Position numbers and translations under genes: made by a program. A model generated the notes under the pieces. The model did no database searches. It was not told the origin of the DNA and was given only the letters and a program-made list of their open reading frames with translations. Of a DNA stretch of 64,000 nt, positions 24,202 to 57,717 are shown one piece after another. The stretch covers positions 15,562 through 79,561 of the forward strand of contig JBJETJ010000032.1 in the NCBI GenBank assembly GCA_051883255.1, read 5' to 3'. The stretch's first letter is position 1. Every line of letters starts with the position of its first letter. Source of the stretch: Treponema sp. (GTDB lineage: Bacteria > Spirochaetota > Spirochaetia > Treponematales > Treponemataceae).

Positions 24202-24310
24202 TTGACCATAATAAATAAAATTGATATTATTAACTCACTGGCGGCAAAGAGGTCGCAGATAAGTTTTTATGCAATGTGCATAAAGAATTGTCTGCGGCTT
24301 CTTTTTTTTT
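24202..24310 (+). promoter_or_regulatory. Promoter plus ANTAR-type attenuator upstream of gltB
   Basis: TTGACC(24202)-17-TATTAT(24225); GGCAAAGAGGTC at 24243-24254 overlaps the 5' arm of a terminator hairpin ending in a U-run at ~24302-24310. Confidence 0.8.
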
Positions 24311-24448
24311 GCTCAAAAAATTTGCAGAACGTCCGCAAGAACAAAATTTCGGTATGTGCAGAAAAATTCCTGTGCCGTTACCGATGTATGTTTATCAGGA
24401 GGGTGTAATAAAAACTTTGCCTGAAATAGCGTCAAAGTTTTTATTCAC

Positions 24449-24568: not shown

Positions 24569-27500
24569 ATGAAGACATTATACGAACCAAGTTTTGAACA
24601 TGATAACTGCGGAATTGGTGCTGTCGTAAGCATCGACGGAATAAAAAGTCATCGTGTCGTAGAAAATGCACTTTCGATTGTAGAAAAACTTGAACATCGT
24701 GCAGGAAAAGATGCCAGCGGAGAAACTGGTGATGGTGTTGGAATTTTACTTCAAATAAGCCACAACTTTTTTAAAGAACTCGAAAAACAAATCGTTCCGT
24801 CTGGCGGACAGCCCGGACAAGTTGAACTTGGTTATGAACGCGATTACGGAATAGGAATGTTTTTCTTTCCTGCTGACAATTTTGAATTTGAAAAAAAACG
24901 TTTTGAAGACTCTTGCAAAAAAGGCAGTCTTGAATTTTTAGGCTGGCGCAAAGTTCCTGTAAATGAAAACGTACTCGGAAAAAAAGCGCGCGACTGTATG
25001 CCTTCAATCTGGCAGGGATTTATCAAGCGCCCTGATAACTGCGAAAAAGGTCTTGAGTTTGACAAGCTTCTTTATAAAGTCCGCCTTGAATTTGAAAAAG
25101 CACAAAATCAGAATGACTCAAAAACTTACGTCTGTTCACTTTCTTCAAGAACTGTCGTTTACAAAGGAATGTTCCTTGTACAGCAGCTGCGCACTTTTTA
25201 CAGCGACTTGCAGTCCCCTGAATACGAATCTGCGCTTGCCATAGTTCACTCACGATTCAGTACAAACACAAACCCGAGCTGGCAGCGCGCCCACCCGAAC
25301 AGATTTATCGCACACAACGGAGAAATAAACACAATCCGCGGAAACGTCGACAGAATGATTGCACGTCTTGGCGAAGTCGACACGACAGGAAGCGACAGTG
25401 CAATGCTCGACAATACACTTGAATATTTTGTAATGAACGGAATGTCACTTCCGCTTGCCGTAATGGTCTGTATTCCTGAACCATGGAAGCACGACGAATC
25501 TTTGTCAGAAAGCAAAAAAGATTTTTATCATTACTGGGCAACAATGATGGAACCTTGGGACGGCCCTGCCGCAATTTTATACAGCGACGGCGATGTTGTC
25601 GGAGCAACGCTTGACCGCAACGGACTGCGCCCGAGCCGCTACTTTATCACAAAAGACAATATGCTCATTCTTTCAAGCGAAGTCGGCGTACTCGACATTC
25701 CAGAAAGCGAAATCGTTTCTAAATCACGATTACAGCCGGGAAAAATGCTCCTCGTAGATACAGTGCGCGCAAGATTAATCAGCGACAAGGAAATAAAAGA
25801 AACTTATTCATCAGAGCACCCTTACGGTGAATGGCTCAGCCAGAATCTGCTTCACCTTGCAGACTTGAAAATTCCGAATAAAAAAATTCCTGTTTCAACT
25901 CTGGAAGAACGCAACAGGCTTTACAGGGCGTTCGGCTGGAATTACGAGGACGTAAACGAAATGGTTTTGCCGATGGCGCGCAATGGAGTTGAACCGACAG
26001 GAGCAATGGGCGTAGATACGCCGCTTGCCTGTATGTCAGACAAGCATCCGTCACTGTTCAGTTATTTTAAGCAGCTGTTTGCACAGGTTACAAATCCGCC
26101 GATTGACAGCCTTCGCGAAAAAATCGTAACTGACACGACAGTCTTTGTCGGAAGCGACGGCGACTTGCTCAAGGCAGACAGAAACAACTGCCGCGTTCTT
26201 GAAATCAACAATCCGATTTTAACCGGCGTCGATTTGCTCAAGATTGCAAATTTAAATCAGCCGGGATTAAAAGCAAAAAAAGTTTCGCTTCTCATAAACC
26301 GCATTGAAGAACCTGCAACAGGCAAAGTTCTTGAAAAAGCGCTCGACAATCTTTTTGAACAAATCGACCTTGCTTACAACGACGGCTACAACATCATAAT
26401 TCTGTCTGACCGCGGAGTTGACAAAGACAACGCTGCAATTCCTTCTTTGCTTGCGGTAAGTTCAGTTGAACAGTATCTAATCCGGACAAAAAAGCGTACA
26501 AAGATTTCGATTATCCTCGAAAGTGCCGAAGTCCGCGACGTTCATCAGGCTGCAATGTGTCTTGGCTACGGAGCGCGCGCAATAAATCCGTACCTCGCTC
26601 ACGAAGCAATCACGGAATTAATTGACCAGAAACTTCTGGACAAAGACTATCACACTGCAATAAACGATTACAACAAAGGCGTAATAAACGGAATCGTAAA
26701 GATTGCCGCAAAGATGGGAATCAGTGCAATTCAGTCATATCAGTCTGCGCAGATTTTTGAAGCAGTCGGAATATCGTCAGAAGTAATCAACAAATATTTT
26801 ACAAATACAATCAGCCGTGTCGAAGGCATCGGTCTTAAAGAAATCGAAGAGGACATAATCTATCATCACAAGCAGGCATGGAATCCGCAGGGACTTACAG
26901 TGAACACTCATCTCGACAGTGTCGGCTCTCACAAGTTCCGCAGAGGCCCGAATGCAGAGGACCACCTTTACAATCCTGAAACAATAATCGCATTGCAGGA
27001 AGCAACACGCAACGGAGATTACGCGCGGTTCAAGGAATACACAAGCCTTGTTGACGACAATTCACGTCCGCACACTTTGCGCGCAATGCTCGATTTTAAT
27101 TTTGACGAACAGAAAGAAATTCCGATTGAACAGGTCGAAAGCGTAGATTCGATTGTCCAGCGTTTTAAAACAGGTGCAATGTCTTACGGTTCAATCAGCG
27201 AAGAAGCGCATAAATGTATGGCAGCCGCAATGAACCATCTTCACGGAAAATCAAATTCAGGCGAAGGCGGTGAAAAACCAGAAAGGCTCGGCACTGAATA
27301 CAATTCTGCAATCAAGCAGGTTGCATCAGGACGGTTTGGCGTTACGGAAGAATATCTTTTGAGCGCAAAAGAAATTCAGATTAAAATGGCGCAGGGAGCA
27401 AAACCGGGCGAAGGCGGTCACCTTCCGGGCAAAAAAGTTTACCCTTGGATTGCAACGACACGATATGCAACTCCGGGCGTTTCGCTCATTTCGCCTCCGC

Positions 27501-29086
27501 CGCATCACGACATTTATTCAATCGAGGACTTGGCGCAGTTAATCTATGACTTGAAAAACGCAAACCGCAGTGCGCGTATTTCCGTAAAGCTCGTTTCAGA
27601 AGCCGGTGTCGGAACAATCGCAGCAGGCGTTGCAAAAGCAGGCGCTCAGGTAATCCTGATTTCTGGTCACGACGGCGGAACAGGGGCTGCGCCGATTTCA
27701 AGTATTCATCACGCAGGACTTCCTTGGGAACTCGGACTTGCAGAAGCACATCAGACTTTAATTCAGAACGGACTTCGCGGTCGGGTAATCATAGAAACTG
27801 ACGGAAAGCTTATGAGCGGACGTGACGTTGCAATGGCGTGCCTTCTCGGTGCAGAAGAATTCGGATTTGCAACAGCGCCGCTTATTACAATGGGCTGTGC
27901 AATGATGCGCGTCTGCAACCTCGACACATGTCCGTTCGGCGTTGCAACTCAAAACGAAAAACTCCGCGCACGATTCCCGGGCAAACCAGAATATGTCGAA
28001 AACTTTATGAAGTTCATCGCACAGGAACTTCGCGAATATATGGCAAAACTCGGCGTTCGTTCTGTTGACGAAATGTGCGGCCGCGTTGATTTGTTAAAGC
28101 TCAAGGAAAAACAGGGCTTTACGCGCGCAGGACTTTTGGACTTGAGCCGCGTCATCGGACAAAGTTCTGGCGAAACGGAAAGCTGGAAAAAATCGCGCGA
28201 CGTATTCAACTTTGAACTTGAAAAAACCGTTGACGAAAAAACTCTCGTAAAAGAATTTGAAAGCGGTAAAAAAATAATTGACGGCATCGCAATCGAAAGT
28301 ACAAACAGAACGGCAGGAACAATTTTAGGAAGCGAAATCCAAAAGAAGTTCGGCAATTCGTTAAACGAAAGCGATTACGTCGTAAATATGACAGGCGGTG
28401 CAGGACAGAGCTTCGGCGCATTCATTCCGAAGGGGCTGACACTCAAGCTGACAGGCGAAGCAAACGACTACTTTGGAAAAGGCTTGAGCGGCGGAAAACT
28501 CGTTGTCGTAAAACCGTCTGACTTTGCAAGTGAAGCAGACGAAAACATAATAATCGGAAACGTCGCTTTGTTTGGTTCAACTTCAGGAAAAGCATTTATA
28601 AACGGTGTCGCAGGCGAGCGTTTCTGCGTTCGCAATTCAGGTGCAACTGCTGTCGTAGAAGGCTGCGGTGACCACGGACTTGAATATATGACAGGCGGAA
28701 CTGCCGTAATCATCGGCGAAACAGGTAAAAACCTCGCGGCAGGAATGAGCGGCGGTATTGCCTACGTTCTCGATGACAAGCACGATTTGTATAAACGGAT
28801 GAATCACGAACTTGTAAAAATGTACGACATCGATGATGAAGTTACGACACTCCGGGATATTTCTGATGCAGACAATCTCCGTTCATTAATTGAACAGCAC
28901 GTAAAAGAAACTGATTCAGAAAAAGGCAAAAAACTGCTTGCCGACTGGAATAAATCTGTCCGCAACTTTAAGAAAATCATTCCGAATGATTATTTGAAAA
29001 TGAAGACAGAAATTTATTCAGGCGAAAAGCAGGGCTTGAAACAGGAAGAAGCCGTAATGGCGGCTTTTGAAAAAATGACAAGATAG
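24569..29086 (+). CDS. gltB: Glutamate synthase large subunit
   Basis: EHDNCGIG N-terminal catalytic Cys, HSRFSTNT, AHNGEINT, KMAQGAKPGEGG, CAMMRVC..DTCP, GXGXG C-terminal domain. Confidence 0.98.
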   Translation: MKTLYEPSFEHDNCGIGAVVSIDGIKSHRVVENALSIVEKLEHRAGKDASGETGDGVGILLQISHNFFKELEKQIVPSGGQPGQVELGYERDYGIGMFFFPADNFEFEKKRFEDSCKKGSLEFLGWRKVPVNENVLGKKARDCMPSIWQGFIKRPDNCEKGLEFDKLLYKVRLEFEKAQNQNDSKTYVCSLSSRTVVYKGMFLVQQLRTFYSDLQSPEYESALAIVHSRFSTNTNPSWQRAHPNRFIAHNGEINTIRGNVDRMIARLGEVDTTGSDSAMLDNTLEYFVMNGMSLPLAVMVCIPEPWKHDESLSESKKDFYHYWATMMEPWDGPAAILYSDGDVVGATLDRNGLRPSRYFITKDNMLILSSEVGVLDIPESEIVSKSRLQPGKMLLVDTVRARLISDKEIKETYSSEHPYGEWLSQNLLHLADLKIPNKKIPVSTLEERNRLYRAFGWNYEDVNEMVLPMARNGVEPTGAMGVDTPLACMSDKHPSLFSYFKQLFAQVTNPPIDSLREKIVTDTTVFVGSDGDLLKADRNNCRVLEINNPILTGVDLLKIANLNQPGLKAKKVSLLINRIEEPATGKVLEKALDNLFEQIDLAYNDGYNIIILSDRGVDKDNAAIPSLLAVSSVEQYLIRTKKRTKISIILESAEVRDVHQAAMCLGYGARAINPYLAHEAITELIDQKLLDKDYHTAINDYNKGVINGIVKIAAKMGISAIQSYQSAQIFEAVGISSEVINKYFTNTISRVEGIGLKEIEEDIIYHHKQAWNPQGLTVNTHLDSVGSHKFRRGPNAEDHLYNPETIIALQEATRNGDYARFKEYTSLVDDNSRPHTLRAMLDFNFDEQKEIPIEQVESVDSIVQRFKTGAMSYGSISEEAHKCMAAAMNHLHGKSNSGEGGEKPERLGTEYNSAIKQVASGRFGVTEEYLLSAKEIQIKMAQGAKPGEGGHLPGKKVYPWIATTRYATPGVSLISPPPHHDIYSIEDLAQLIYDLKNANRSARISVKLVSEAGVGTIAAGVAKAGAQVILISGHDGGTGAAPISSIHHAGLPWELGLAEAHQTLIQNGLRGRVIIETDGKLMSGRDVAMACLLGAEEFGFATAPLITMGCAMMRVCNLDTCPFGVATQNEKLRARFPGKPEYVENFMKFIAQELREYMAKLGVRSVDEMCGRVDLLKLKEKQGFTRAGLLDLSRVIGQSSGETESWKKSRDVFNFELEKTVDEKTLVKEFESGKKIIDGIAIESTNRTAGTILGSEIQKKFGNSLNESDYVVNMTGGAGQSFGAFIPKGLTLKLTGEANDYFGKGLSGGKLVVVKPSDFASEADENIIIGNVALFGSTSGKAFINGVAGERFCVRNSGATAVVEGCGDHGLEYMTGGTAVIIGETGKNLAAGMSGGIAYVLDDKHDLYKRMNHELVKMYDIDDEVTTLRDISDADNLRSLIEQHVKETDSEKGKKLLADWNKSVRNFKKIIPNDYLKMKTEIYSGEKQGLKQEEAVMAAFEKMTR

Positions 29087-29108
29087 CCAGAGCAGATTTC
29101 AGGAGAAA

Positions 29109-30689
29109 ATGAAAATGGGAAAAACTACAGGATTTTTAGATTATACAAGAACAGAAAACGGAAATTTTCCGCCGCTGGAAAGAATAAAAAACTTCAAGGA
29201 ATTTCATCCGTTTCTTGATGACGTAAAGCGCCGTGAACAGGCCGCACGATGTATGAACTGCGGAGTGCCGATGTGTCAGTCTGCAATAAAACTTGCCGGT
29301 ATGGTAACGGGCTGTCCTCTGCACAATTATATCCCTGAGTGGAACGACGCGCTCTATCAGGGTCAGTACGATATGGCAGCCTGGCGTCTTTTAAAGACTT
29401 CAAGCTTTCCTGAGTTTACGGGCCGTGTCTGCCCTGCGTTATGCGAAAAAGCATGCAACTGCGGAAACCCTGTCTGCAATGACGAAGCCGTTACGATTCA
29501 CGACAACGAACTTTACATTATCGAAAAAGCTTTTTCTTCCGGCTATATGCAGCCAGAAATTCCTGATTCACGAAGCGGAAAAAAAGTTGCCGTAATCGGT
29601 TCAGGGCCTGCGGGACTTGCAGTTGCAGACTGGCTTAACAGGCGCGGACATTCCGTAACAGTTTACGAGCGCGAAGACAAAGCAGGCGGACTTTTGATGT
29701 ACGGAATTCCAAATATGAAGCTCGACAAAAAAATCGTTGACCGCCGAATTGAACTGATGAAAGCCGAAGGCGTTGAATTTATTTTTAATGCCGACGTCGG
29801 AAAAAATATTTCTGCAAGCCACATCATGCAAAGTTACGATGCAGTCGCTCTGTGCTGCGGTGCAAAAAAAGCAAGGGCACTTTCTGCAACCGGCATCGAA
29901 AAACTTAACGGCGGTAAAAACGGCGCAGAAGGCGGAATGATGTTTGCCGTAGATTTCTTGAAAGAAGTTACAAAGTGTGTAATTGCCACGACTTCTGCAC
30001 TTGAAAAAATCAAAATCAATCCTGCAAACGAACAAATCGGACAAATGCTTTTAAAAGAAGCCGGCATTGAACTCAAAGACAAAAACGTCATCATCGTCGG
30101 CGGTGGTGACACAGGCAACGACTGCACGGGAACTTCAATAAGGCTCGGTGCAAAAAGCATAACCCAGATTGAAATGATGCCGTGTCCTCCAGCCAGCCGT
30201 GCAGAAAACAATCCTTGGCCGCAGTGGCCGCGTGTTTTAAAAACAGACTACGGCGCAGAAGAATCAATCGCAGTATACGGTCACGATCCGCGCGTTTACG
30301 AAACTACGATAAAAGAAGTTTTCAGCAAGGACGGAAAAATCACGGGCGTAAAAACTGTCGAAGTAGAATTCCAGACAATCGACGGAAAACGCCAGCTTGT
30401 TGAACGCAAAGGAACAGAAAAAGAACTGCCTTGCGATTTGCTTTTAGTTGCAGCAGGATTTGTCGGAGCAGAAGAATATACAGCCGAAAGTTTCGGAACG
30501 GAACTCGGACCGCGCGGAACAGTGCTTTCAAAAAGCGGAAAAACTTTCAGTTCAGAAACAGGCTACCATTCATCAGTTGAAAAAGTCTTTACGGCAGGCG
30601 ATATGCACCGCGGACAGTCTTTAGTTGTCTGGGCAATCGCAGAAGGCCGTGAATGTGCTCAGGAAATTGATGAGTATTTGATGAAATAA
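29109..30689 (+). CDS. gltD: Glutamate synthase small subunit
   Basis: QAARCMNCGVPMC, FPEFTGRVCPALCE, VIGSGPAGL, VGGGDTGNDC, GDMHRGQSLVVWAIAEGR. Confidence 0.97.
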   Translation: MKMGKTTGFLDYTRTENGNFPPLERIKNFKEFHPFLDDVKRREQAARCMNCGVPMCQSAIKLAGMVTGCPLHNYIPEWNDALYQGQYDMAAWRLLKTSSFPEFTGRVCPALCEKACNCGNPVCNDEAVTIHDNELYIIEKAFSSGYMQPEIPDSRSGKKVAVIGSGPAGLAVADWLNRRGHSVTVYEREDKAGGLLMYGIPNMKLDKKIVDRRIELMKAEGVEFIFNADVGKNISASHIMQSYDAVALCCGAKKARALSATGIEKLNGGKNGAEGGMMFAVDFLKEVTKCVIATTSALEKIKINPANEQIGQMLLKEAGIELKDKNVIIVGGGDTGNDCTGTSIRLGAKSITQIEMMPCPPASRAENNPWPQWPRVLKTDYGAEESIAVYGHDPRVYETTIKEVFSKDGKITGVKTVEVEFQTIDGKRQLVERKGTEKELPCDLLLVAAGFVGAEEYTAESFGTELGPRGTVLSKSGKTFSSETGYHSSVEKVFTAGDMHRGQSLVVWAIAEGRECAQEIDEYLMK

Positions 30690-30702
30690 GGACTGGCAGA
30701 CA

Positions 30703-32133
30703 ATGGGTTTTCATGACGAATGTGGCGTTGTAGGAATTTTCAATGCAGAAAATTCCGCAGCGCTTACATATTTTGCAATTACCTCTTTACAGCACAGAGG
30801 ACAGGAAAGTGCAGGAATCGCAGTTTCTGACGGAACTGAAATTCACATTCATAAAGATATGGGACTTGTCAGCGACGTTTTTGAACAAGACCATTTTGAC
30901 TCATTAAAAGGAAACATCGCAGTAGGTCATGTCCGCTATGCAACGGCAGGCGGAAGAACAATCGAAAACGCACAGCCTTTCTTTAACACTTCAAAACTTG
31001 GCGGTATTGCACTTGCCCACAACGGACAGCTTGTAAACTACGAACCATTGCGCGAAATGCTCGAGGACTCAGGCAATACATTTTCTTCAACGAGCGACTC
31101 GGAAGTAATCATAAAACTGATTGCACGCAACTACAAAAAAGGACTTGAAAACGCAGTCGTCAACACGATTCAGCTTATAAAAGGTTCTTACGCACTCTGC
31201 CTTATGACAGAAGACACGCTCATCGGTGTCAGAGATCCAAACGGAATCCGCCCCTTGTGTCTTGGAAAAATAACTTCAAGTTCAACTGAACAGGATTTAT
31301 CAGGTTCATCAAGTTCTTCAAGTTCATCAAATTCGTCAAATCTAAACGAAGAAAAAACGACATACATTCTTGCATCAGAGTCCTGTGCAATCGATTCCGT
31401 AAACGGAGAATTTGTGCGCGACATTCAGCCCGGCGAAATCGTCATCATCACAAAAGACGGCGTAAAATCAATTCTCCTCGAAGAAAAAACACGAAAGCAG
31501 ACATGTATTTTTGAATACGTTTACTTTGCGCGCCCCGACTCCGTCATCGACCAGATTGCGGTTCAGGAAGCCAGATACAAAATGGGAAAAGTCCTCGCAA
31601 ACGAATCTCCCGTAGAAGCCGACGTCGTAATCGGAGTGCCCGACAGCGGAATCGGCGCGGCACAAGGCTACGCAAAAGAATCAGGAATTCCGTATGTCAC
31701 GGGAATAATAAAAAACAAATACATCGGACGAACATTTATTGCGCCGACACAAAAAGAGCGCGAAAATATGGTCTTTGTAAAATTGAACGCAATCAAGAGC
31801 GACCTCGAAGGAAAACGCGTAATCGTAATTGACGATTCAATCGTACGCGGAACTACGAGCAGACGGCTTGTCCAGATTTTAAGGCGCGCAGGTGCAAAAG
31901 AAGTTCACTTTCGGGTATCGTCGCCACCGGTAAAATTTCCGTGCTACCTTGGAATCGACACGCCGAGCAAAAATGAACTTATCTCAAGCACGCACGAACT
32001 TGAAGAAATACGAAAAGAAATCGGAGCAGATTCCCTTGCATTCATCAGTCTTGAAGGAATGATAAAATCATTCGGAGTTGATACATTCTGCAAAGGCTGT
32101 TTTTGCGGAGAATATCCTGTTGCAGGAAAATAG
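30703..32133 (+). CDS. purF: Amidophosphoribosyltransferase
   Basis: DECGVVG, LQHRGQESAG, AHNGQL, CIFEYVYFARPDS, VIDDSIVRGTTS, CYLGID, CKGCFCGEYP. Confidence 0.97.
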   Translation: MGFHDECGVVGIFNAENSAALTYFAITSLQHRGQESAGIAVSDGTEIHIHKDMGLVSDVFEQDHFDSLKGNIAVGHVRYATAGGRTIENAQPFFNTSKLGGIALAHNGQLVNYEPLREMLEDSGNTFSSTSDSEVIIKLIARNYKKGLENAVVNTIQLIKGSYALCLMTEDTLIGVRDPNGIRPLCLGKITSSSTEQDLSGSSSSSSSSNSSNLNEEKTTYILASESCAIDSVNGEFVRDIQPGEIVIITKDGVKSILLEEKTRKQTCIFEYVYFARPDSVIDQIAVQEARYKMGKVLANESPVEADVVIGVPDSGIGAAQGYAKESGIPYVTGIIKNKYIGRTFIAPTQKERENMVFVKLNAIKSDLEGKRVIVIDDSIVRGTTSRRLVQILRRAGAKEVHFRVSSPPVKFPCYLGIDTPSKNELISSTHELEEIRKEIGADSLAFISLEGMIKSFGVDTFCKGCFCGEYPVAGK

Positions 32134-32143
32134 TTAAAACGAT

Positions 32144-32710
32144 TTAAGCGTAAGTTTTGATGACCTGTTCTGCAACCGCGATTTTTTTTATGCAGCGGTC
32201 CATCGCTTCTTTTTCGATGTAGCGGTGGGCGTCCTGTTCAGTCATTTTGAGGTTCTGCATTAAAATCATTTTTGCGCGGTTAATCAGGCGGATTTCTTCC
32301 ATTTTGACTTTGAGCTTTGTCGTCTGACTTGAAAGAACCTGAACTTTATACTGAACTGCAAGCGCAATTTTTATCATATTATAAAAATAGAACTGGTCAA
32401 ACGTCGAAGTTATCGTAAGAATTCCGTACGTTTCAACTTTGTAACTTATCTGGTCAAAAAACTGAACGGGCGAAAGCAACAAAATCGTACTTGCAGAATC
32501 AGAAATATCGATTGCAAAATCAGTTCCTTCGCCGTCGGCAAAATCGACAATCACGATATTATAACTGCGCTCAGAACAAATCCGGCGCGCTTCGTTAAAG
32601 TCTTTTATAATGACAGTTTCAAAAGTCGGCGGAACAAGCATACTGTTAATCAGCGAGGAAATTTTATCATCTCTTGTTACAACTAAAACGCTGTGAGTTT
32701 CTTGAGTCAT
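32144..32710 (-). CDS. ANTAR-domain antiterminator with degenerate receiver domain (AmiR/NasT/NitR-like)
   Basis: C-terminal INRAKMILM...TEQDAHRYIEKEAMDRCIKKIAVA is an ANTAR motif; the N-terminal receiver-like fold lacks the conserved beta5 K-P. Confidence 0.9.
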   Translation of the reverse strand: MTQETHSVLVVTRDDKISSLINSMLVPPTFETVIIKDFNEARRICSERSYNIVIVDFADGEGTDFAIDISDSASTILLLSPVQFFDQISYKVETYGILTITSTFDQFYFYNMIKIALAVQYKVQVLSSQTTKLKVKMEEIRLINRAKMILMQNLKMTEQDAHRYIEKEAMDRCIKKIAVAEQVIKTYA

Positions 32711-32712
32711 AT

Positions 32713-33879
32713 CTAGTTATTGAAAATTCCCTTTATAAAGTCGCTCTCGTCTGCCAGCTTTTTTGCAGCTCCCAGAGTGTCAGGCAAAGTTTTTAAGTCG
32801 CCGACATTGCTGATGTCAAAAAGATTTTTCTCTACAGGTTCTGGCGGTAAAAGATTATTTTTTATTCCGTCCAATGCTGAATAAATCAAAACCGTAAATG
32901 CAATGTACGGATTACATTCAGAATCAGCAGAGCGAACTTCAAGGCGCGTTGAATTTTTACTTGCAGGAACTCTGATAAAAGCAGAGCGATTTTCTGAACC
33001 CCAGCAGATGTACTTTGGAGCTTTGTGTTCGCCAAGCCGGTTATATGATTCTTCTGAGGAATTTAGAAAATACGTAATCTCCTCTGCGTGTTTGATTATT
33101 CCTGCAAGAACATTCTGCATTTTTGAATTGTCAGAACATGAAATATTTATGTGCAGACCGCTTCCTGCTTCCCCGCTCAAAGGCTTTGGAGAAAAGTCTG
33201 CAAAAAGACCGTTGGTTGCAGCCTTTGTCCGTACAATCCATTTAAAAGTTTCTGCATTGTCAGCGGCAATAAGCGGATCTGAATAATGAAAATCAATTTC
33301 GTTCTGCCCCGGGCCTTCTTCGTGATGGCTTGATTCGGGCGTAATTCCCATCTGCTCAAGAGTAAGGCAAATCTCGCGGCGGATATTTTCGCCTTTGTCC
33401 TCCGGTGCAATATCCATATAGCCGGCATTGTCAAAAGGAATTTTTGTAGGTTCGTTTTTTTCGTTCAATTTGAAAAGGTAGAATTCGATTTCAGTTCCGA
33501 TTCCAAATTCAAGATTGAATTTGTCTTTTGCAAAGTTCACTGCATTTTGAAGCATAGTGCGGCAGTCTTTTTTGTAGAGAGTTCCGTCGGGATATTTTAT
33601 GTTGCAGAACATTCTTACGACTTTGCCTGTGTTCGGACGCCAGGGGAGAACGCAAATTGTCGTAGGGTCTGGGTGCAAAAACAAATCAGATTTTTCAGGA
33701 GTTTCAAAACCGCAGATTGCAGACGCATCAAAACTTATTCCCTCGCGAAAAGCGCGCTCCAGCTGCGTGGCAATAATCGAAATATTTTTTTGCCGTCCCT
33801 TTATGTCAAAAAAAGCAAGCCGAACAAATTTTACGTCTTCTTCTTTTATAAAATCAAGTATTTCGCTTTCTGTGTACAT
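32713..33879 (-). CDS. glnA: Glutamine synthetase type I-like protein (short, ~388 aa)
   Basis: FDASAICGF, GTEIEFYLF, HHEEGPGQNEID, PKPLSGEAGSGLHINIS, WGSENRSAFIRVP, RLEVRSAD..CNPY; ATG at 33879 follows GGGAG. Confidence 0.85.
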   Translation of the reverse strand: MYTESEILDFIKEEDVKFVRLAFFDIKGRQKNISIIATQLERAFREGISFDASAICGFETPEKSDLFLHPDPTTICVLPWRPNTGKVVRMFCNIKYPDGTLYKKDCRTMLQNAVNFAKDKFNLEFGIGTEIEFYLFKLNEKNEPTKIPFDNAGYMDIAPEDKGENIRREICLTLEQMGITPESSHHEEGPGQNEIDFHYSDPLIAADNAETFKWIVRTKAATNGLFADFSPKPLSGEAGSGLHINISCSDNSKMQNVLAGIIKHAEEITYFLNSSEESYNRLGEHKAPKYICWGSENRSAFIRVPASKNSTRLEVRSADSECNPYIAFTVLIYSALDGIKNNLLPPEPVEKNLFDISNVGDLKTLPDTLGAAKKLADESDFIKGIFNN

Positions 33880-33939
33880 CGTTTCTCCCATAAAAATCAA
33901 TTTAAAACCAATTTAAGGAAATTTAATTTCCGCAATAAT

Positions 33940-34038
33940 AAAAAATGGCCGGAGAAGCCGACTGAATTTTTCCAGTAAACTGTTCCCGACCTTTCTGCTT
34001 CGAGTTTAAATAATATTTTAAATTTTTACTTTTAGCAA
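33940..34038 (-). promoter_or_regulatory. Promoter plus divergent attenuator-like leader of the glnA-ANTAR operon
   Basis: TTGCTA(34038-34033)-17-TATTAT(34015-34010); AGCAGAAAGGTC(33999-33988) runs into GGTCGGGA...TCCGGCC-ATTTTTT. Confidence 0.6.
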
Positions 34039-34045
34039 TAGTGCG

Positions 34046-34372
34046 CTCGTAAATTTCAATTACCCCACAAACACTGGACTACCTCGCGCCACGAGTTTGC
34101 AAAGGGCAAACTCTGTATGGGGTGTGGGTCGGTGTAACTTTTGAATTTCAGTTGCTTCACAAGCACGGAGTTAGTTCGCGGTACGAGAATTGCATAGCGC
34201 AATTCTCTATGTGGGGTGTGGGTCGGTGTAACTTGTAAATTTCGGTTACCTTACAAGCACTGGACTACCTCGCGCCACGAGAATTGCACAGGGGCAAAAC
34301 TCTGTGTGGGGTGTGGGTCGGTGTAACTCGTAAATTTCGATTGCTCACAAACACGGAGTTAGTTCGCGGTAC
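34046..34372. repeat. Tandem array of ~93-95-bp mosaic units (REP/BIME-like), about 3.4 copies
   Basis: GGGGTGTGGGTCGGTGTAACT identical at 34119, 34213, 34308; alternating TGGACTACCTCGCGCCAC (34075, 34261) and GGAGTTAGTTCGCGGTAC (34167, 34355); each full unit carries a hairpin. Confidence 0.9.
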
Positions 34373-34395
34373 TAGGCTGGAATTTTGCAGGGTAT

Positions 34396-34424
34396 AAAAA
34401 AAGGCTGTCCGACGGACAGCCTTT
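34396..34424 (-). terminator. Intrinsic terminator of the outer-membrane protein gene
   Basis: AAAGGCTGTCC-GAC-GGACAGCCTTT with A-run at 34396-34402. Confidence 0.8.
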
Positions 34425-43822: not shown

Positions 43823-45577
43823 TTAATATGCCTTGTCGTGAACTCCAGCAATCGCACGTCCTGAAGGTTCGTCCATATTTTTCCAGGCGGCATCCCACTC
43901 AAGAGCCTTTGCAGTTGAGCAGGCAACTCCGGCTTCGTGCGGTACGACTTTTGCGGCGCTGTCACTCGGGAAAAGGCGGCTGTAAATTTCGCGGTAGTAA
44001 TATTCTTCTTTTGTTTTTGGCGGATTTACAGGAAATCTGTTTTCGCGGCGTGCAAATTCTGCATCGCTTACTTTTTCTTCCGTCATTTTTTTGAGAGTGT
44101 CAATCCAGTTGTAGCCTACGCCGTCAGAGAACTGTTCTTTCTGTCGCCAGCAGATTTCTTCGGGGAGCATATCTTCAAACGCCTTTCTGATAATCCATTT
44201 TTCCATTCGCTGTTTACCGTCTGCGAGGCGGATATTCATTTTGTCTGACGGATTGAGCGACATTGCAATATCGATGAATTCTTTATCAAGGAACGGAACG
44301 CGCCCTTCGACACCCCAAGCCATAAGCGATTTGTTTGCACGGAGGCAGTCGTAAAGATGGAGCTTGCTCATTTTGCGCACGAGTTCTTCGTGGAATTCTT
44401 TTGAATCCGGCGCTTTGTGAAAATACAGATAACCGCCAAAAAGTTCGTCACTTCCCTCACCGCTCAAAACCATTTTTATTCCCATCGATTTTATAACGCG
44501 GGCTAACAGGTACATCGGCGTTGAGGCGCGGACTGTCGTAATGTCGTAAGTTTCGATGTGATAGATTACGTCAGGCAAAGCATCGAGCGCCTCCTGAATC
44601 GTAAAGTGAACTTCGTGATGAACTGTTCCGATGTAGTCAGCCGCTTTCTGTGCCGCAATCAAGTCAGGGCTTCCTTCAAGTCCGACTGCAAAACTGTGGA
44701 GCTGAGGCCACCAGGCTGCTTCTTTTGAATCGCTTTCAATTCGTTTTTTAGAAAACTTCTGCGTAACTGCCGCGATGATTGAAGAGTCAAGTCCGCCGCT
44801 CAAAAGAACGCCGTACGGAACGTCACTCATCAGCTGCTGCTTTACTGCGTTTTCAAGACCGTTGCGCACTTTTTCGATTACGCCCGGATTAATAACTTCG
44901 CCCTTGTCGTCAGTTGCGCGCGGATTGTTTTTTACGGCATCAAAAGTTTCCCAGTCGCGTTTATACCAGCGCGAAGGCTTTTCGTCTTTTGAATAAAAAT
45001 AATGTCCGTTCGGGAATTCTTCGATTGTCTGACATTCGCCTTCAAGCGCCTTTAATTCTGATGCGACATAATAACGGCCGGCTTTGTCCCAGCCCTGATA
45101 AAGCGGAATTACACCGATTTCATCGCGCGAAATAAGATAAACGTCGTTCTCGCTGTCGTAAAGTGCAAACGCAAAAATACCGCTAAGCTTTTCTATCATC
45201 TGCGTAAAATCACCGCTCTGCTGGTATTCCTTGTAAAGCGGAATGATTACTTCACAGTCGCTCATCGTGCGGAAATTATATTTTCCTTCAAACTCTTTGC
45301 GGATTTCCTTGTGGTTGTAAATTTCGCCGTTTGCCGCAAGAATGATTTTTTCGTCGTCACTTACAAGCGGCTGTTTGCCCGAAAGCGGGTCAACAATCGA
45401 AAGCCTCTCGTGACTTAAAATTGCGTTTTCGCCCGTGTAAACACCGCTCCAGTCCGGGCCGCGATGCCGGATTTTTTTTGACATCTCCAGAACCTGATTT
45501 CTTAATTCCTCTTTTAATCCTGCATCAATAGGTTTTGAGCCGCTGCTCAAATCAAACGCACCTACAAATCCACACAT
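43823..45577 (-). CDS. asnB: Asparagine synthetase B (glutamine-hydrolysing)
   Basis: MCGFVG start after GGAGGA, IRHRGPDWSG, ANGEIYNH, LLSGGLDSS, SGEGSDELFGGY, WRQKEQFSDGVG. Confidence 0.97.
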   Translation of the reverse strand: MCGFVGAFDLSSGSKPIDAGLKEELRNQVLEMSKKIRHRGPDWSGVYTGENAILSHERLSIVDPLSGKQPLVSDDEKIILAANGEIYNHKEIRKEFEGKYNFRTMSDCEVIIPLYKEYQQSGDFTQMIEKLSGIFAFALYDSENDVYLISRDEIGVIPLYQGWDKAGRYYVASELKALEGECQTIEEFPNGHYFYSKDEKPSRWYKRDWETFDAVKNNPRATDDKGEVINPGVIEKVRNGLENAVKQQLMSDVPYGVLLSGGLDSSIIAAVTQKFSKKRIESDSKEAAWWPQLHSFAVGLEGSPDLIAAQKAADYIGTVHHEVHFTIQEALDALPDVIYHIETYDITTVRASTPMYLLARVIKSMGIKMVLSGEGSDELFGGYLYFHKAPDSKEFHEELVRKMSKLHLYDCLRANKSLMAWGVEGRVPFLDKEFIDIAMSLNPSDKMNIRLADGKQRMEKWIIRKAFEDMLPEEICWRQKEQFSDGVGYNWIDTLKKMTEEKVSDAEFARRENRFPVNPPKTKEEYYYREIYSRLFPSDSAAKVVPHEAGVACSTAKALEWDAAWKNMDEPSGRAIAGVHDKAY

Positions 45578-45651
45578 ATAAAATTCCTCCAAAAGTTCGC
45601 TTCGCAAGAAACTTGACTCCGGCGTTTTCAAGTTCTCTCAAACCATAAAAC

Positions 45652-45755
45652 AAAAAAAGAGGCCGTAGAAAAAATCTATGCCTTATGCACAAAATTTATC
45701 TACGACCTCTTTGCCGTTGTTCTTTTATAATAGCGATTTTATTCATTTATTTCAA
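45652..45755 (-). promoter_or_regulatory. Promoter plus ANTAR-type attenuator upstream of asnB
   Basis: TTGAAA(45755-45750)-17-TATTAT(45732-45727); GGCAAAGAGGTC(45715-45704) overlaps GAGGTCGTAGA...TCTACGGCCTC-TTTTTTT. Confidence 0.8.
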
Positions 45756-45870
45756 GCAAAAACATAAAAAATATATTTTCAGGATTTCCGCAGGGAACTT
45801 AGGCAACTTCGGGAGCTTTCAGTTTTATATGCCCTTTCCTTATAAACCTCTTTTTGCTATAATCGGACTT

Positions 45871-47292
45871 ATGGAAACACGTAACATTTTTGAAAACCTT
45901 TCATGTATCGACCACAGATATTCTTTATCAGAATCTGAGGCATTTTCAGGACTTTCTAAGTATATTTCAGAAGAAGCTTCTATCCGTTCATGCGCAAAAT
46001 GCGAAGCCGCACTTGTAAAAGCACACCTCAAACTTCGCGGAAAACTCACTGACGAAATTGCAAAGACTTTGGACAGCGTTGCAGAAAACATCGACCCGCA
46101 GGAAGTTTACACCGAAGAAGAAAAAACAAAGCACAATATCCGCGCTTTAGTAAACGTAATGAAAACTAAAGTCAATTCAGAAATCGGCCCGCTCATTCAC
46201 CTTGGCGCAACTTCCGTAGATATTCTTGACACGGCGCTTTCATGCCGTATGCGCGACGTTACGCAAAATGTCGTTCTCCCGGAACTTAAAAAACTCGAAA
46301 ACTATCTTTGCGATATTGCAGAACGCGAATGTAACACTCCTCAGGTAGGACGAACTCACGGACAGCACGCAGTTCCGATTACGTTCGGCTGGTCAATCGC
46401 AGAATTCGTAAGCCGTCTTGGAAAATCAATTTTAAAAATCGAATCGCTTTCAAACGACCTTGTCGGAAAACTCGCAGGCCCTGTAGGTTCATACAACGGT
46501 CCGTCGATGATTGTAAAAGACCCTGAAGAACTCGAAAAAACTTACGTCGAATTTTTAGGACTCAAACCTTCTGAATATTCAAACCAGCTTGTCGAACCGG
46601 AAAACGTCCTTCGCCTCCTGCTTGAAATGAACGTCGCATTCGGAATCATCGCAAACCTTGCAGATGACCTGCGCAATTTACAGCGTTCAGAAATCGGCGA
46701 AGTATTTGAATATTTTGCCGCAACTCAAGTCGGTTCTTCGACAATGCCACAAAAACGCAACCCGTGGAATTCTGAACACGTTAAATCATTGTGGAAAGCA
46801 ATGTGCCCTCGCGTCATTACTTTCTATATGGATCAGATTTCAGAACACCAGCGCGATTTGACAAATTCAGCAAGCCAGCGATTTATTGCAGATTACGTTT
46901 CGGGCTTTACGATGGCAGTTGCCAGAATGAACTCTGTCGTAAAAGGACTTCAAGCAGATAAAGAAGGAATGGCGCGCAACCTCGAAAACGCCGGCGGTAA
47001 AGTTAAAGGAGGAGTTCTTGCAGAACCTGCTTACATTCTTTTGGGAGAAGCCGGCTACAACGACGGCCACGAAGTAATCCGTAAAATCACGCTCGAAGCA
47101 GAACAGACAGGCAAAACTTTCTTTGAAGTTTTAAAAACGCACGAAAAAGAATATGCCGACATTACTGCCCAGCTCGAAAAACTCGGCGTAGAAAATCCTG
47201 CCAGCTTCTTTGAACATCCGTCAAATTACTGCGGTCTTGCTGCCGTAAAATCAAAACGCCTTGCATTAAAATACAGGGATTTGATGAAATAA
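45871..47292 (+). CDS. purB: Adenylosuccinate lyase
   Basis: HLGATSVD, GRTHGQHA, GSSTMPQKRNP signature; likely ATG at 45871. Confidence 0.93.
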   Translation: METRNIFENLSCIDHRYSLSESEAFSGLSKYISEEASIRSCAKCEAALVKAHLKLRGKLTDEIAKTLDSVAENIDPQEVYTEEEKTKHNIRALVNVMKTKVNSEIGPLIHLGATSVDILDTALSCRMRDVTQNVVLPELKKLENYLCDIAERECNTPQVGRTHGQHAVPITFGWSIAEFVSRLGKSILKIESLSNDLVGKLAGPVGSYNGPSMIVKDPEELEKTYVEFLGLKPSEYSNQLVEPENVLRLLLEMNVAFGIIANLADDLRNLQRSEIGEVFEYFAATQVGSSTMPQKRNPWNSEHVKSLWKAMCPRVITFYMDQISEHQRDLTNSASQRFIADYVSGFTMAVARMNSVVKGLQADKEGMARNLENAGGKVKGGVLAEPAYILLGEAGYNDGHEVIRKITLEAEQTGKTFFEVLKTHEKEYADITAQLEKLGVENPASFFEHPSNYCGLAAVKSKRLALKYRDLMK

Positions 47293-53643: not shown

Positions 53644-55320
53644 CTAGTACTGAAGGGCATCGTAGCCTTCTTCACCTGTCCTTACTTTTACAACATTCTG
53701 AACATCGTAAACAAAAATCTTTCCGTCACCAATATGACCTGTGTAAAGAACTTCTTTTGCAGCAGTTATTACCAAATCAACAGGAACTTCAGAAACTACG
53801 ATGTCAACCTTAATCTTTGGAAGCAAAGTCATATCAACTTCTGCACCACGATAAAGCTGAGTTTTTCCATGCTGAACACCGCAACCCAGAACATTTGTAA
53901 CAGTCATACCTGTTACGTTGATGTCGTTCATCGCAGTCTTCAATTCTTCAAACTTGCTCTGACGTGTAATAATAGTTACCATGTGGAACTTAGCATCAGG
54001 CTTGCTCGGTGCTTTTGCAACAGGAACTGCTTTTTCTACAGGAACAGGAGATTCCCTTGCATCGCCCGGAGCACCTTCTGTCATAACCTGAGGAGCCATA
54101 ATAAATCCAGCGTAAGAAGAATCAATACCGTGTTCAAGTTTATCAAGACCAACAACTTCTTCTTCTCTGCTTGCCCTCAATCCGTGTACTTTCTTAATCA
54201 GGCTGAACGTAATGAGCATGCAGACTGTTGTCCAGAGTAAAATTGCTCCGATTCCGAGAGCCTGAACTCCAAGCTGTCTGAATCCGTGTCCATAGAAAAG
54301 ACCTGTATCTACGCTGAACAAACCGCATGCGAGAGTTCCCCATACGCCGTTTGCAAGGTGAACTGCAACTGCACCAACCGGGTCATCAATATGAAGTTTA
54401 AGGTCAAGAAGTTCTACAACAAAAACTACAAGAAGCCCTGCAACAATACCGATAATTGCGGCACCCAAAGCATCACAAGTAGCACAAGGAGCCGTAATTG
54501 CAACAAGACCTGCAAGTGAAGCATTCAACGTCATAGAAACATCAGGCTTGCCGTTCTTTATCCAGGTAAAAATCATTGTAGTTACACATGCAAGAGCCGG
54601 AGCGATTGTCGTTGTAGTAAATACAGCCGCAAGTCCTCCGATACCGCCCATCTGTGTACAAGCCGCACCGTTAAATCCATACCAGCCAAACCAGAGAATG
54701 AATGTACCAAGTGCACCGAGTGTCAATGAGTGTCCCGGAATAGCGTGAACTTTTGTAACCGTTCCATTCTTGTCGCGGTCATATTTTCCAATTCGGGGTC
54801 CGAGGAAAATCGCACCGATTAAAGCTGCTGTTCCGCCTACAGAGTGAATTGCAGCAGAACCGGCAAAATCAATAAAGCCAAGCTGTGCAAGCCAGCCCTG
54901 AGAATTCCATACCCAGCCGGCTTCAATAGGATAAACTATTGCAGAAATTACTGCAGAATAAATACAATATGCACTGAACTTAGTTCTTTCTGCCATTGAA
55001 CCAGAAACAATAGTTGCAGCTGTAGCACAGAACACTAAGTTGAATACAAAACTTGACCAGTCGATTTCAGCAAAGTTTGTAAAAAGCTGCAAATTCGGTT
55101 TACCGATAAAACCAAAGAAATAGTTTTCGCTCATCATCAAGCCAAAACCTAAAAGCATGAACATTGGCGTACCGATACAAAAATCCATCAGGTTTTTCAT
55201 GATGATGTTGCCGGCATTTTTTGCACGGGTAAAACCTGTTTCAACCATTGCAAATCCGCACTGCATAAAGAATACAAGTGCCGCACCAATAAGGAACCAA
55301 ACTCCCCAAACTTCAGACAT
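53644..55320 (-). CDS. amtB: Ammonium transporter fused to C-terminal PII (GlnK/GlnB) domain
   Basis: FMQCGFAMVETG, DFAGSAAIH, ILWFGWYGFN, DDPVGAVAVH; PII motifs GMTVTNVLGCG and TGHIGDGKIFV. Confidence 0.95.
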   Translation of the reverse strand: MSEVWGVWFLIGAALVFFMQCGFAMVETGFTRAKNAGNIIMKNLMDFCIGTPMFMLLGFGLMMSENYFFGFIGKPNLQLFTNFAEIDWSSFVFNLVFCATAATIVSGSMAERTKFSAYCIYSAVISAIVYPIEAGWVWNSQGWLAQLGFIDFAGSAAIHSVGGTAALIGAIFLGPRIGKYDRDKNGTVTKVHAIPGHSLTLGALGTFILWFGWYGFNGAACTQMGGIGGLAAVFTTTTIAPALACVTTMIFTWIKNGKPDVSMTLNASLAGLVAITAPCATCDALGAAIIGIVAGLLVVFVVELLDLKLHIDDPVGAVAVHLANGVWGTLACGLFSVDTGLFYGHGFRQLGVQALGIGAILLWTTVCMLITFSLIKKVHGLRASREEEVVGLDKLEHGIDSSYAGFIMAPQVMTEGAPGDARESPVPVEKAVPVAKAPSKPDAKFHMVTIITRQSKFEELKTAMNDINVTGMTVTNVLGCGVQHGKTQLYRGAEVDMTLLPKIKVDIVVSEVPVDLVITAAKEVLYTGHIGDGKIFVYDVQNVVKVRTGEEGYDALQY

Positions 55321-55417: not shown

Positions 55418-57511
55418 TTATTTTACGCTGAACAGCATTTCGCCGTAACTTGGAACAGGCCATTTTTCTGACGGAACAAAACCTTCAAGTTCGTCAACAT
55501 TGGCACGAAGTTCATTCATTGCAGCAAATACTGTGTTTTTGTAGAACATAGCAATTTCGGAAGCACCTTCAATACTCTTTACATCAACAACTGCCTTTTC
55601 AAGAGTCTGAACCTTACCGTAAATTGAACTTGTAAGCTGGCTTATTTTCTTAAGCAACTCAGCTTCGTAAGTATCTTCTACTGATGAAACCGCAGTTTTC
55701 TTTGCGATAATCGTATCAGCAAGTTCTTTTGAATAACCGCTTGCAGCAGGAAGATACATCTTTTTAACCATATCAATCATTGTCAAAGCTTCGATATTGA
55801 TGATTTTTGAATAATTATCATTCTGAATTTCAAAGCGTGAATTGATTTCTGTATCACTGAATACTCCATGTTTCTTGAACAAATCACGGTTCTTCTGGTC
55901 AGTAAAATGTTTCAAAGCTTCCGGTGTTGATTTAAGATTGAGAAGTCCGCGTTTTTCAGCTTCTTTTACCCAGGCATCATCATATCCGTTGCCGTTGAAA
56001 ATAATCCGCTTGTGTTCTTTGATTGTCTTAAGAATCAAAGCGTGCAAATCTTTCTGGAAATCTTTGCTGCTTTCAAGCTGGTCTGCAAACTGGCTCAATT
56101 CTTCTGCAACTGCCGTATTAAGCATAATGTTTGCGCAGGCGATTGAATCGCTTGAACCAAGTGAACGGAACTCAAATTTATTTCCTGTAAATGCAAACGG
56201 AGAAGTACGGTTACGGTCAGTCGTATCCTTGTTAAAATCAGGAAGAACTGTTACGCCAATCTGCATTTTTTCTTTCTGGTGTGAACCGTAAGGTTTGCCT
56301 TCTTCAAGTGCATCAAGGATTGCGCTAAGTTCATCTCCAAGGAACATAGAAATAATTGCAGGAGGAGCTTCGTTAGCACCAAGACGATGGTCGTTGCCGG
56401 CAGTTCCTACAGAAATGCGCAGCAGATCCTGATATTCGTCAACAGCTTTAATTACAGCGCACAGGAACAAAAGGAACTGTGCATTGCTTTCTGGAGTTGC
56501 ACCCGGGTCAAGAAGGTTTTTACCAGTGTTTGTAGAAATTGACCAGTTGTTATGTTTACCGCTTCCGTTTACGCCGGCAAATGGTTTTTCATGAAGCAGA
56601 CAAACCATTCCGTGTTTAGAAGCAACTTTGCGCATAACTTCCATTGTAAGCTGGTTGTGGTCGCAGGCAAGATTTGTCGTGCTGAAAATCGGTGCAAGTT
56701 CGTGCTGAGCAGGCGCTACTTCGTTGTGTTCAGTTTTTGCAAGAATTCCGAGCTTCCACAGTTCTTTGTTCAAATCTTTCATAAAGTCCTGAACGCGCGG
56801 TTTTATCATACCGAAGTAGTGGTCTTCAAGTTCCTGTCCTTTCGGAGATTTTGCGCCGAACAGAGTTCTGCCTGTAAAAATTAAGTCCTCGCGTTTTTCG
56901 TAAACAGACTTGTCGATTAAGAAATATTCCTGTTCCGGGCCGACTGTTGTCTTTACTGAAGTTACGTCCTGATTTCCGAACAGTTTTAAAACACGCACTG
57001 CCTGTTTGCTGATTGCCTGCATAGAACGGAGCAATGGTGTTTTTTTATCAAGTGCTTCGCCTGTATAAGAACAGAAGCAAGTAGGAATACAAAGCGTTCC
57101 GTCTTTTATGAATGCGTAAGAAGTAGGATCCCATGCTGTATAACCGCGGGCTTCAAAAGTTGCACGCAAACCGCCAGAAGGGAAAGAAGATGCGTCAGGT
57201 TCACCCTGTACAAGTTCCTTACCGCTGAATTCCATAATGATTTTTCCGTCGCTTGCCGGCTGAATAAAACTGTCGTGTTTTTCAGCAGTTACGCCTGTAA
57301 GCGGCTGAAACCAGTGCGTAAAGTGAGTTGCACCTTTTTCGATGGCCCAGTCTTTCATTGCGTTTGCAACGATATTTGCCACAGTCGGATCAAGTTTTTC
57401 TCCGCCCTCGATTGTTTTCATAAGTTGCTTAAAAGTTTCTTTTGGCAACCTCGCTTTCATCACTGTTTCGTTAAAAACATTTTCACCGAAAATTGATGTT
57501 ACAGATTCCAT
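55418..57511 (-). CDS. glnA: Glutamine synthetase type III
   Basis: [83 protein letters not shown]; ATG at 57511 after GGAGGA. Confidence 0.96.
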
Positions 57512-57545: not shown

Positions 57546-57717
57546 CAAAAAGCGCCGTAAAATTTAAAGATGATGACACACCTTCAAAATTACGACGCCT
57601 TTGCCGATAAAGTACAAATTGTATAAAATTGTATAAAAAAAGGTCGCAGAATAATCACTTCTGCGACCTCATTGCCGTTGTTAAATTGATAATACAGTTT
57701 CTAAAAAAAACTGTCAA
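57546..57717 (-). promoter_or_regulatory. Promoter plus two tandem ANTAR-type attenuators upstream of type III glnA
   Basis: TTGACA(57717-57712)-17-TATTAT(57694-57689); GGCAATGAGGTC(57676-57665)+terminator; GGCAAAGGCGTC(57605-57594)+terminator. Confidence 0.82.

Follow-up and report, generated by a model that had tools for sequence, protein, structure and literature searches.

A short glutamine synthetase-like protein strictly paired with an ANTAR antiterminator: a candidate nitrogen-sensing module in Treponema

The stretch of Treponema sp. DNA analysed here (the window; 64,000 nucleotides of GCA_051883255.1, contig JBJETJ010000032.1, positions 15,562 to 79,561) contains two adjacent minus-strand genes, one encoding a short type I glutamine synthetase-like (GS-I-like) protein and the other an ANTAR-domain antiterminator (Table 1). 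The assembly comprises 2.70 Mb and the contig that carries the window (C32) 137 kb. As listed, the GS-like open reading frame (ORF) starts at a TTG codon and covers 32713-33900 on the minus strand (395 aa); the true start is assigned to the ATG at 33879, giving a product of 388 aa, because a GGGAG ribosome-binding site lies 5′ of this codon and all homologues begin with MYTESE. The junction of the two genes reads AAC-TAG-at-ATG, with exactly 2 nt between the GS stop and the ANTAR start. The genome encodes exactly one ANTAR protein and three GS-family proteins, namely the short GS-like protein and two type III GSs, one of which lies in the window and carries the GSIII_N, Gln-synt_C and Gln-synt_C-ter domains. 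No histidine kinase was found on the 137-kb contig, and all 23 HATPase_c matches of the genome fall on other contigs. An initial annotation of this DNA had described a short GS-I of ~388 aa located 2 bp from an ANTAR gene, a full type III GS elsewhere in the window and the lack of a nearby histidine kinase, all of which agree with these data. Three features go beyond it: an internal deletion of ~15–22 aa in the GS, replacement of the catalytic flap Glu by Lys, and conservation of the gene pair far outside this genome.

The short GS contains the Pfam domains Gln-synt_N (2.2e-25) and Gln-synt_C (1.5e-78), the latter spanning only model positions 2–314 of 344. Against the NCBIfam GlnA equivalog (TIGR00653) it scores 346.9 bits, under the 429.15 cut-off, and matches model positions 2–429 of 462. 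Its closest sequences and structures are GS-I-α enzymes of Gram-positives and methanogens, and the top fold match is the Methanosarcina mazei GS (8s59; TM-score 0.84, normalised to the target). Residues were mapped by alignment to the Bacillus subtilis GS and counted in 66 Treponema and 68 metagenome short-GS sequences. The six metal ligands and the substrate arginines are present in the window protein (E130, E132, E187, E194, H243, E314, R281, R298, R303, and R316). All 11 metal and substrate ligands are intact in 65/68 metagenome sequences; the E357-equivalent (E314) is Gln in 11/66 Treponema sequences, which keep the other ligands. A decaying pseudogene, or a pseudoenzyme nature of the clade as a whole, was rejected on the metagenome count, only some lineages being degenerate.

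The catalytic flap Glu (Salmonella E327, B. subtilis E304, M. mazei E307), termed the catalytic glutamic acid in PMC10651883, is Lys286 in the window protein, and Lys occupies this position in 63/66 Treponema and 65/68 metagenome sequences. Where B. subtilis GS has R62, the Arg responsible for glutamine feedback, the window protein has T60, and Arg is found there in none of the clade members. The internal deletion follows the HxNxS strand. At the C-terminus the short GS ends ~33 residues before canonical GS-I-α proteins, and it therefore lacks the C-terminal helices that join two hexamer rings; in the M. mazei GS the inter-hexamer contact is made by helices H14/15 (PMC11957540). Truncation or an assembly artefact was considered and ruled out, as the best 120 homologues are all 385–392 aa long and two phyla conserve the short form.

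Within the family these changes are graded. At one end stands a genus that encodes a canonical GS of 452 aa, with the flap Glu and R62, beside its ANTAR gene; in intermediate genera the flap Glu persists together with some of the tail; and members of the main clade have the flap Lys and the short tail. Several genomes with the short gene also encode a separate canonical GS-I of 443–444 aa (flap Glu, R62, and full C-terminus), and the short protein is therefore best described as a specialised paralog. The copy of a Saccharofermentans sp. (GCA_024403715.1, L101:4835-6001) carries Arg at the E129-equivalent, Asn at D50 and Gln at E357 and has lost the NRS motif; these residues clearly mark it as a pseudoenzyme within the clade. 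This GS is still paired with an ANTAR gene, its stop overlapping the ANTAR start by 1 nt.

The partner protein matches the Pfam ANTAR domain (PF03861) at 5.5e-16 over residues 132–184, and the Pfam Response_reg model finds no match in it. In its AlphaFold2 (AF2) model, which has a predicted local distance difference test score (pLDDT) of 83, a (β-α)5 receiver-like fold is followed by a ~50-residue helix (106–154) and then by two ANTAR helices. The model resembles EutV (TM-score 0.72), AmiR in the AmiC complex (0.70–0.72), and Rv1626. Alignment to EutV (PDB 6wsh) places the Asp of IVIVD56 at the phospho-Asp position and ITS102-T103 at the position of the β5 Lys-Pro (K109-P110), bearing out the original statement that the β3 Asp is kept and the Lys-Pro lost. 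The phospho-site of the window regulator is made up of R13-D14, D56, S80, and S102, with no Lys, and the acceptor site is incomplete. Among 80 Treponema regulators, D56 is present in 80, D14 in 79, and the first acidic position is Lys or Arg; Lys109 is retained in only 6 and missing in 71, and any of T, A, V, C, and S may stand at the T87-equivalent. In the clostridial partners (n = 78) Lys109 is always kept (78/78), the phospho-Asp position is Asn in 77/78, and the acidic pair is replaced by Ala or Ser, and Asn occupies the phospho-Asp position in 98 of 131 family representatives. On these alignments the phospho-site is incomplete throughout the family, in differing ways, the pattern expected of a pseudo-receiver, and the receiver-like domain is probably not phosphorylated.

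Every Treponema locus (80/80) has a GS gene (380–415 aa) immediately 5′ of the ANTAR gene, and the distance between the two ranges from −1 to 79 nt and is mostly ≤4 nt; the same order is seen in 19/20 distant Treponemataceae loci in which the ANTAR identity is just 27–60%. Among 151 sampled Treponemataceae genomes, 67 have an ANTAR gene; the GS gene is adjacent in 63, the locus is cut by a contig edge in 3, and a GS is lacking in 1. The short GS lineage without ANTAR was seen only at contig ends in these 151 genomes. In the metagenome loci, which include gut and rumen contigs, a GS of ~402–403 aa precedes ANTAR in 79/80, the 80th locus having no upstream DNA. The regulator family comprises at least 848 clusters (50% identity, E ≤ 1e-10), many of them from gut and rumen samples, and its named members are from Clostridia, including Saccharofermentans. 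Four loci of distant ANTAR relatives, one of them in a Saccharofermentans genome (L101), likewise have a 388–405-aa GS before ANTAR, two of the four (L102 and L104) behind a split glutamate synthase (GOGAT) cluster, like C. thermocellum Clo1313_2030-2036 (PMC4676874). These sequence comparisons give good support to an obligate module of the two genes, in which the regulator works independently of phosphorylation.

Two observations on the surroundings of the pair may be added. In many Treponema loci (L005, L016, L021, L024, L030-L033, L038, L043, and others) the pair directly follows pyrG (CTP synthase), with no attenuator, and in 2/4 distant-relative loci (L101 and L104) pyrG follows the pair, an apparent recurrent tie to a glutamine-using enzyme. 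Contigs of metagenome-assembled genomes labelled Anaerovoracaceae, Lachnospiraceae, and Parabacteroides distasonis (L006, L009, and L012) carry a Treponema-type pair at 74–75% identity; a search of the class around the ‘Lachnospiraceae’ genome led to Spirochaetia genomes, and the three contigs look mis-binned or mislabelled.

The putative RNA targets of the regulator are attenuators in front of nitrogen-assimilation genes. The motif cGGC[AAWGRS]GTCG has 4 mismatch-free sites in the window, vs 0.77 expected by chance at the mismatch tolerance used, and the four sites precede gltB, asnB, and, twice in tandem, the type III GS gene. A looser genome-wide scan yielded five motif-plus-terminator sites, all on the window contig. 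Each site forms a 4-bp stem with a hexaloop (A1, G4), and a strong intrinsic terminator uses the 3′ arm together with part of the loop as its own 5′ arm (z −5.5 to −7.9 at the four window target sites). The stem covaries across Treponema loci (CGGC/GTCG, TGGC/GCCG, GAAC/GTTC, and CGTC/GACG). The classical ANTAR target consists of two hexaloop hairpins (A1, G4), the second of which overlaps the terminator (Ramesh 2012, PMC3369931). Each attenuator described here has the terminator overlap and a single A1/G4 hexaloop hairpin rather than two; a scan for the dual hexaloop ANTAR motif found none in the nitrogen-gene leaders, and no Rfam family matched the window at gathering thresholds. Good sigma-70 promoters lie close upstream and place the target hairpin at the extreme 5′ end of the predicted transcript, a few nt past the predicted start, which leaves no room for a first hairpin.

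The leader of the glnA-ANTAR operon itself retains the promoter-motif-terminator layout with a degenerate motif, in which only 2 stem pairs are possible and G4 of the loop is A (AGAAAG), and a weak terminator (−20.9 kcal/mol, z −1.85). The leader of the pair differs among related species: some have the canonical form, some a second type (GAGC[AAAGGC]GTTC), and in others it is missing and pyrG immediately precedes the pair. Autoregulation therefore varies among species and has probably been lost here, consistent with the earlier reading of the degenerate loop as a sign of weaker or no autoregulation. Directly upstream of the −35 box of the operon lies a repeat array (window 34040-34400) with units of ~94–125 bp (accgacccacaccccacacagag units).

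The residue pattern of the short GS bears on the signal that it might sense. The allosteric pocket of the Methanothermococcus thermolithotrophicus GS is formed by F18′, R20′, R88′, R174, R175, and S191 with a small residue at position 34, and B. subtilis GS has Y20, E36, and T83 at pocket positions instead (PMC10799026). In M. mazei the residues for 2-oxoglutarate are F24, R26, R87, R172′, R173′, and S189′, and 2-oxoglutarate alters the oligomeric state of the enzyme (PMC11957540). The equivalents in the window protein are F18, R20, S34, R81, R167, R168, and S184; they are invariant in 66/66 Treponema and in 66–68 of 68 metagenome sequences, and they survive in the degenerate Saccharofermentans copy. 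Since the protein keeps these pocket residues but not those of glutamine feedback, and given the known influence of 2-oxoglutarate on GS assembly, 2-oxoglutarate is the likelier candidate signal of the two. The initial annotation had pointed to a Bacillus-like glutamine-feedback mechanism. A sensor of the B. subtilis type was rejected, with Thr at the R62-equivalent and Lys in place of the flap Glu, the two residues that in the Bacillus enzyme trap glutamine.

From the gene anatomy, conservation, co-occurrence, residue patterns and RNA motif we infer a contact between the two proteins, its ligand and a direction of control as follows. The ANTAR protein would be the antiterminator of the nitrogen-assimilation regulon of the genome and would bind the single 5′-proximal hexaloop hairpin (A1, G4), whose 3′ arm otherwise serves the intrinsic terminator, before gltBD-purF, GS-III/amtB-PII (two hairpins), asnB, and an aminotransferase gene. 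It would receive its signal from the co-translated short GS-like protein rather than by phosphorylation. The GS-like protein may sense through a metabolite-dependent conformation or oligomeric state, most likely one that responds to 2-oxoglutarate; one state would hold or inactivate the ANTAR dimer and the other would release or activate it, by analogy with AmiC-AmiR. A role as sensor or partner, such as AmiC has for AmiR, is suggested because the pairing is obligate, the receiver is degenerate, the GS has catalytic and ring-joining losses with its ligand residues kept, and GS-I or GS-III enzymes coexist with it. Overall, we regard this as the likeliest explanation and estimate a probability of about 0.5 that the pair is a sensor-partner module in which a GS-derived metabolite sensor gates a NitR-like antiterminator. 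The initial annotation had likewise proposed the GS-like protein as the nitrogen sensor of the antiterminator; the pairing, the degenerate receiver and the GS losses fit the sensor or partner role, and the glutamine-feedback part falls away. More tentatively, and less likely than not, the short flap-Lys GS may be a non- or barely catalytic 2-oxoglutarate receptor whose ligand-driven assembly, lacking the ring-joining helices, captures or releases the ANTAR dimer; acting through the single-hairpin attenuator, the pair would then serve many Clostridia and Treponema of gut and rumen as their main nitrogen sensor.

Several observations weigh against a GS-derived sensor in contact with the regulator. 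Ligand residues are kept in most members; the active site is therefore under purifying selection, and the short GS may still be an enzyme. The 2-oxoglutarate pocket is not specific to the paralog, as the canonical GS-I-α copies of the same genomes share its residues, and its presence therefore reflects ancestral inheritance, not a novelty of the short form. Asp56 is invariant and Asp14 nearly so in Treponema, and an orphan kinase or acetyl phosphate could still phosphorylate the regulator. An enzyme and a regulator could also share an operon without contact. The ANTAR start codon of 62 loci falls in the GS reading frame, and read-through of the stop would give a natural fusion; 60 paired rows from both phyla were aligned, and AF2 was run on the L022 fusion of GS and ANTAR with a 15-residue linker. 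The parts fold (pLDDT 85), the linker is disordered, and the predicted TM-score (pTM) is 0.65, close to the GS fraction of the chain (~389/592), as expected when the model has no confident placement of the GS against the ANTAR part. A defined 1:1 GS-ANTAR interface is thus unsupported in the fusion model, which is a weak test, being a monomer with a 15-aa tether and having neither the GS ring nor the ANTAR dimer, and by which binding is not refuted.

The short GS could accordingly be a working isoenzyme that shares the operon, with the ANTAR protein sensing otherwise, for example through the PII domain of AmtB-PII, which the regulon encodes, or through a small ligand on its receiver-like domain. 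The conserved metal, ATP, and glutamate ligands and the AF2 fusion model without docking agree with this, and the clostridial glnA-nitR pair has been described as an enzyme gene and a regulator gene (PMC6316151, PMC4676874). However, an isoenzyme does not sit easily with a flap Lys found across the clade and a missing ring-joining C-terminus, with a Saccharofermentans copy that has clearly lost catalytic residues yet is still ANTAR-paired, with genomes that already have GS-III and often a canonical GS-I, or with the near-absolute co-occurrence with ANTAR; we regard it as rather unlikely. Another γ-glutamyl ligase, using an amine instead of ammonium at a remodelled site and linked to ANTAR only by transcription, would account for the altered ammonium site (flap Glu to Lys, Ala at the Salmonella S53 equivalent) beside intact ATP and glutamate sites, and the protein does match the NCBIfam γ-glutamylputrescine synthetase model, more weakly, at 184 bits. 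GS-I is by far the top match in both sequence and structure, no conserved polyamine or amine catabolic neighbours occur in the Treponema and distant-relative loci, and the loss of the ring-joining helices and the strict ANTAR pairing would be left unexplained, making a ligase highly improbable. A true response regulator, with acetyl phosphate or a histidine kinase encoded elsewhere as the phosphodonor for Asp56, is also very unlikely. The invariant Asp56 and nearly invariant Asp14 of Treponema, the ~20 HATPase_c proteins encoded elsewhere in the genome, and the precedent of Geobacter GnfR, an ANTAR response regulator whose kinase is unlinked and whose RNA motif is very similar (PMC2995071), speak for it; they are countered by the missing Lys109, the Lys or Arg at the first acidic residue, the variable T87-equivalent, the Asn at the phospho-site in relatives with the same pair, and the unmatched Response_reg model.

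The proposed sensor-partner module is related to the already known clostridial glnA-nitR pair. In glnA-nitR(-gltAB) of Clostridium saccharobutylicum NCP262 and in C. thermocellum Clo1313_2030-2036 a GS-I gene is likewise followed by a gene for an ANTAR protein of ~190 aa, with GOGAT genes near. The C. saccharobutylicum GlnA is full-length, at ~444 aa. Deletion of the type I GS of C. thermocellum, which may or may not belong to the short clade, reportedly deregulates nitrogen metabolism (title of Rydzak 2017, cited in PMC9888227). The ANTAR relatives of Clostridia (~35–40% identity) have the same short-GS neighbour, and L102 and L104 repeat the order of split GOGAT, GS, and ANTAR. The present system differs in that the host is a spirochaete and the GOGAT is of the fused bacterial type; gltBD is convergent with the pair in the window. 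According to PMC6316151 (citing Stutz 2007) and PMC4676874, the clostridial ANTAR protein is presumed to act as antiterminator of the GS and GOGAT genes when nitrogen is limiting. The literature searched contained no description of how NitR senses nitrogen and no mention of a sensor role of the GS, the flap Lys, the truncation or a 2-oxoglutarate pocket; nor did it contain a paper on the short paralog with the flap Lys, on its strict cross-phylum pairing or on a sensor role for it.

Other known systems share parts of the arrangement. AmiC-AmiR of Pseudomonas aeruginosa, and also NasS-NasT, likewise combine a non-phosphorylated pseudo-receiver ANTAR protein with a ligand-binding partner encoded by the adjoining gene (PMC3369936, PMC3795266); here the partner is of the GS family instead of having a periplasmic-binding-protein fold, the complex is a proposed one, and the RNA target is one hairpin, not two. 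Feedback-inhibited GS of Bacillus and other Gram-positives is also a GS-I-α that acts as a nitrogen sensor, through protein contact with TnrA and GlnR (PMC6316151, PMC10651883), whereas its partners are MerR-type DNA-binding proteins whose C-terminal tail enters the active site, and the protein paired with ANTAR here has neither Arg62 nor the flap Glu. The closest structure (8s59) belongs to the archaeal 2-oxoglutarate-activated GS-I-α enzymes (M. thermolithotrophicus and M. mazei GlnA1), all of whose 2-oxoglutarate-coordinating residues have conserved equivalents; these are true enzymes with the flap Glu and the H14/15 dodecamer helices, in contrast to the short protein, which has neither and whose pocket is recognised from sequence. 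Finally, GnfK/GnfR of Geobacter sulfurreducens includes an ANTAR regulator of nitrogen genes whose site, CAGGCAANGGCGCC, overlaps terminators (PMC2995071) and is very like cGGCAAAGGCGTCG here. GnfR is phosphorylated by its kinase, and a GS-like partner is not described there.

How NitR-type regulators sense nitrogen has been an open question since the clostridial glnA-nitR cluster was described, and the GS paralog encoded upstream is a concrete candidate for the sensor; we know of no kinase or ligand for antiterminators of this type. The residues singled out by the analysis are Lys286, the 2-oxoglutarate-pocket residues F18, R81, R167, and R168 in the GS-like protein, and Asp56 in the regulator. 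Because at least 67/151 sampled Treponemataceae genomes carry the module and the regulator family spans at least 848 clusters, many from gut or rumen, ammonium assimilation is probably under its control in a large part of the anaerobes of these habitats. If the proposed mechanism is true, it would be another case of a metabolic enzyme fold turned regulator, and ANTAR proteins would be able to act on a single hairpin, departing from the two-hairpin rule.

Table 1. Coordinates of the gene pair, its leader and the predicted regulon (window positions, except for the fifth attenuator).
Feature	Position	Strand	Details
Attenuator before gltB-gltD-purF-like	24242..24313	plus	CGGC[AAAGAG]GTCG 24242-24255; terminator 24246-24304 + T-run, z −6.7
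Predicted regulated operon	24569..32133	plus	gltB 24569-29086, gltD 29109-30689, purF-like 30703-32133; convergent with ANTAR gene
ANTAR antiterminator gene	32144..32710	minus	188 aa; receiver-like domain, coiled-coil helix 106-154, three-helix ANTAR domain 132-184
Short GS-I-like gene	32713..33879	minus	388 aa; stop TAG 32713-32715; Gln-synt_N + Gln-synt_C
Leader of the glnA-ANTAR operon	33940..34000	minus	AAGC[AGAAAG]GTCG 33987-34000; weak terminator-like stem 33943-33994, U-run 33940-33945
Sigma-70-like promoter of the glnA-ANTAR operon (putative, direct reading)	34010..34038	minus	TTGCTA 34033-34038, 17 nt spacer, TATTAT 34010-34015
Attenuator before asnB (43823-45631)	45650..45716	minus	hairpin 45703-45716 + terminator, z −7.9
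Tandem attenuators before type III GS (55418-57541) and amtB-PII (53644-55320)	57548..57677	minus	hairpins 57664-57677 and 57593-57606; z −5.5 and −6.2
Fifth attenuator	C32:81787-81884 (~2.3 kb past window end)		ATGGC[AAAGAG]GTCGT + terminator, before 398-aa aminotransferase gene

Some further observations concern the genes of the regulon. The 398-aa aminotransferase behind the fifth attenuator resembles LL-diaminopimelate aminotransferase in our own reading of its N-terminal sequence. An AmtB channel fused to a C-terminal PII domain (558 aa) is encoded 97 nt downstream of the type III GS gene; it is probably under the same tandem attenuators, and the fusion is a possible alternative signal input. 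About half of the Treponema loci have the purF-like gene convergent with the one for ANTAR, and in the window the purF-like product carries a low-complexity Ser/Asn insertion, SGSSSSSSSSNSSN, at about residues 199–213 inside the amidotransferase domain. The asnB attenuator overlaps the first codons of an automatically called 535-aa adenylosuccinate-lyase ORF on the plus strand (45685-47292), the real start of which probably lies further downstream.

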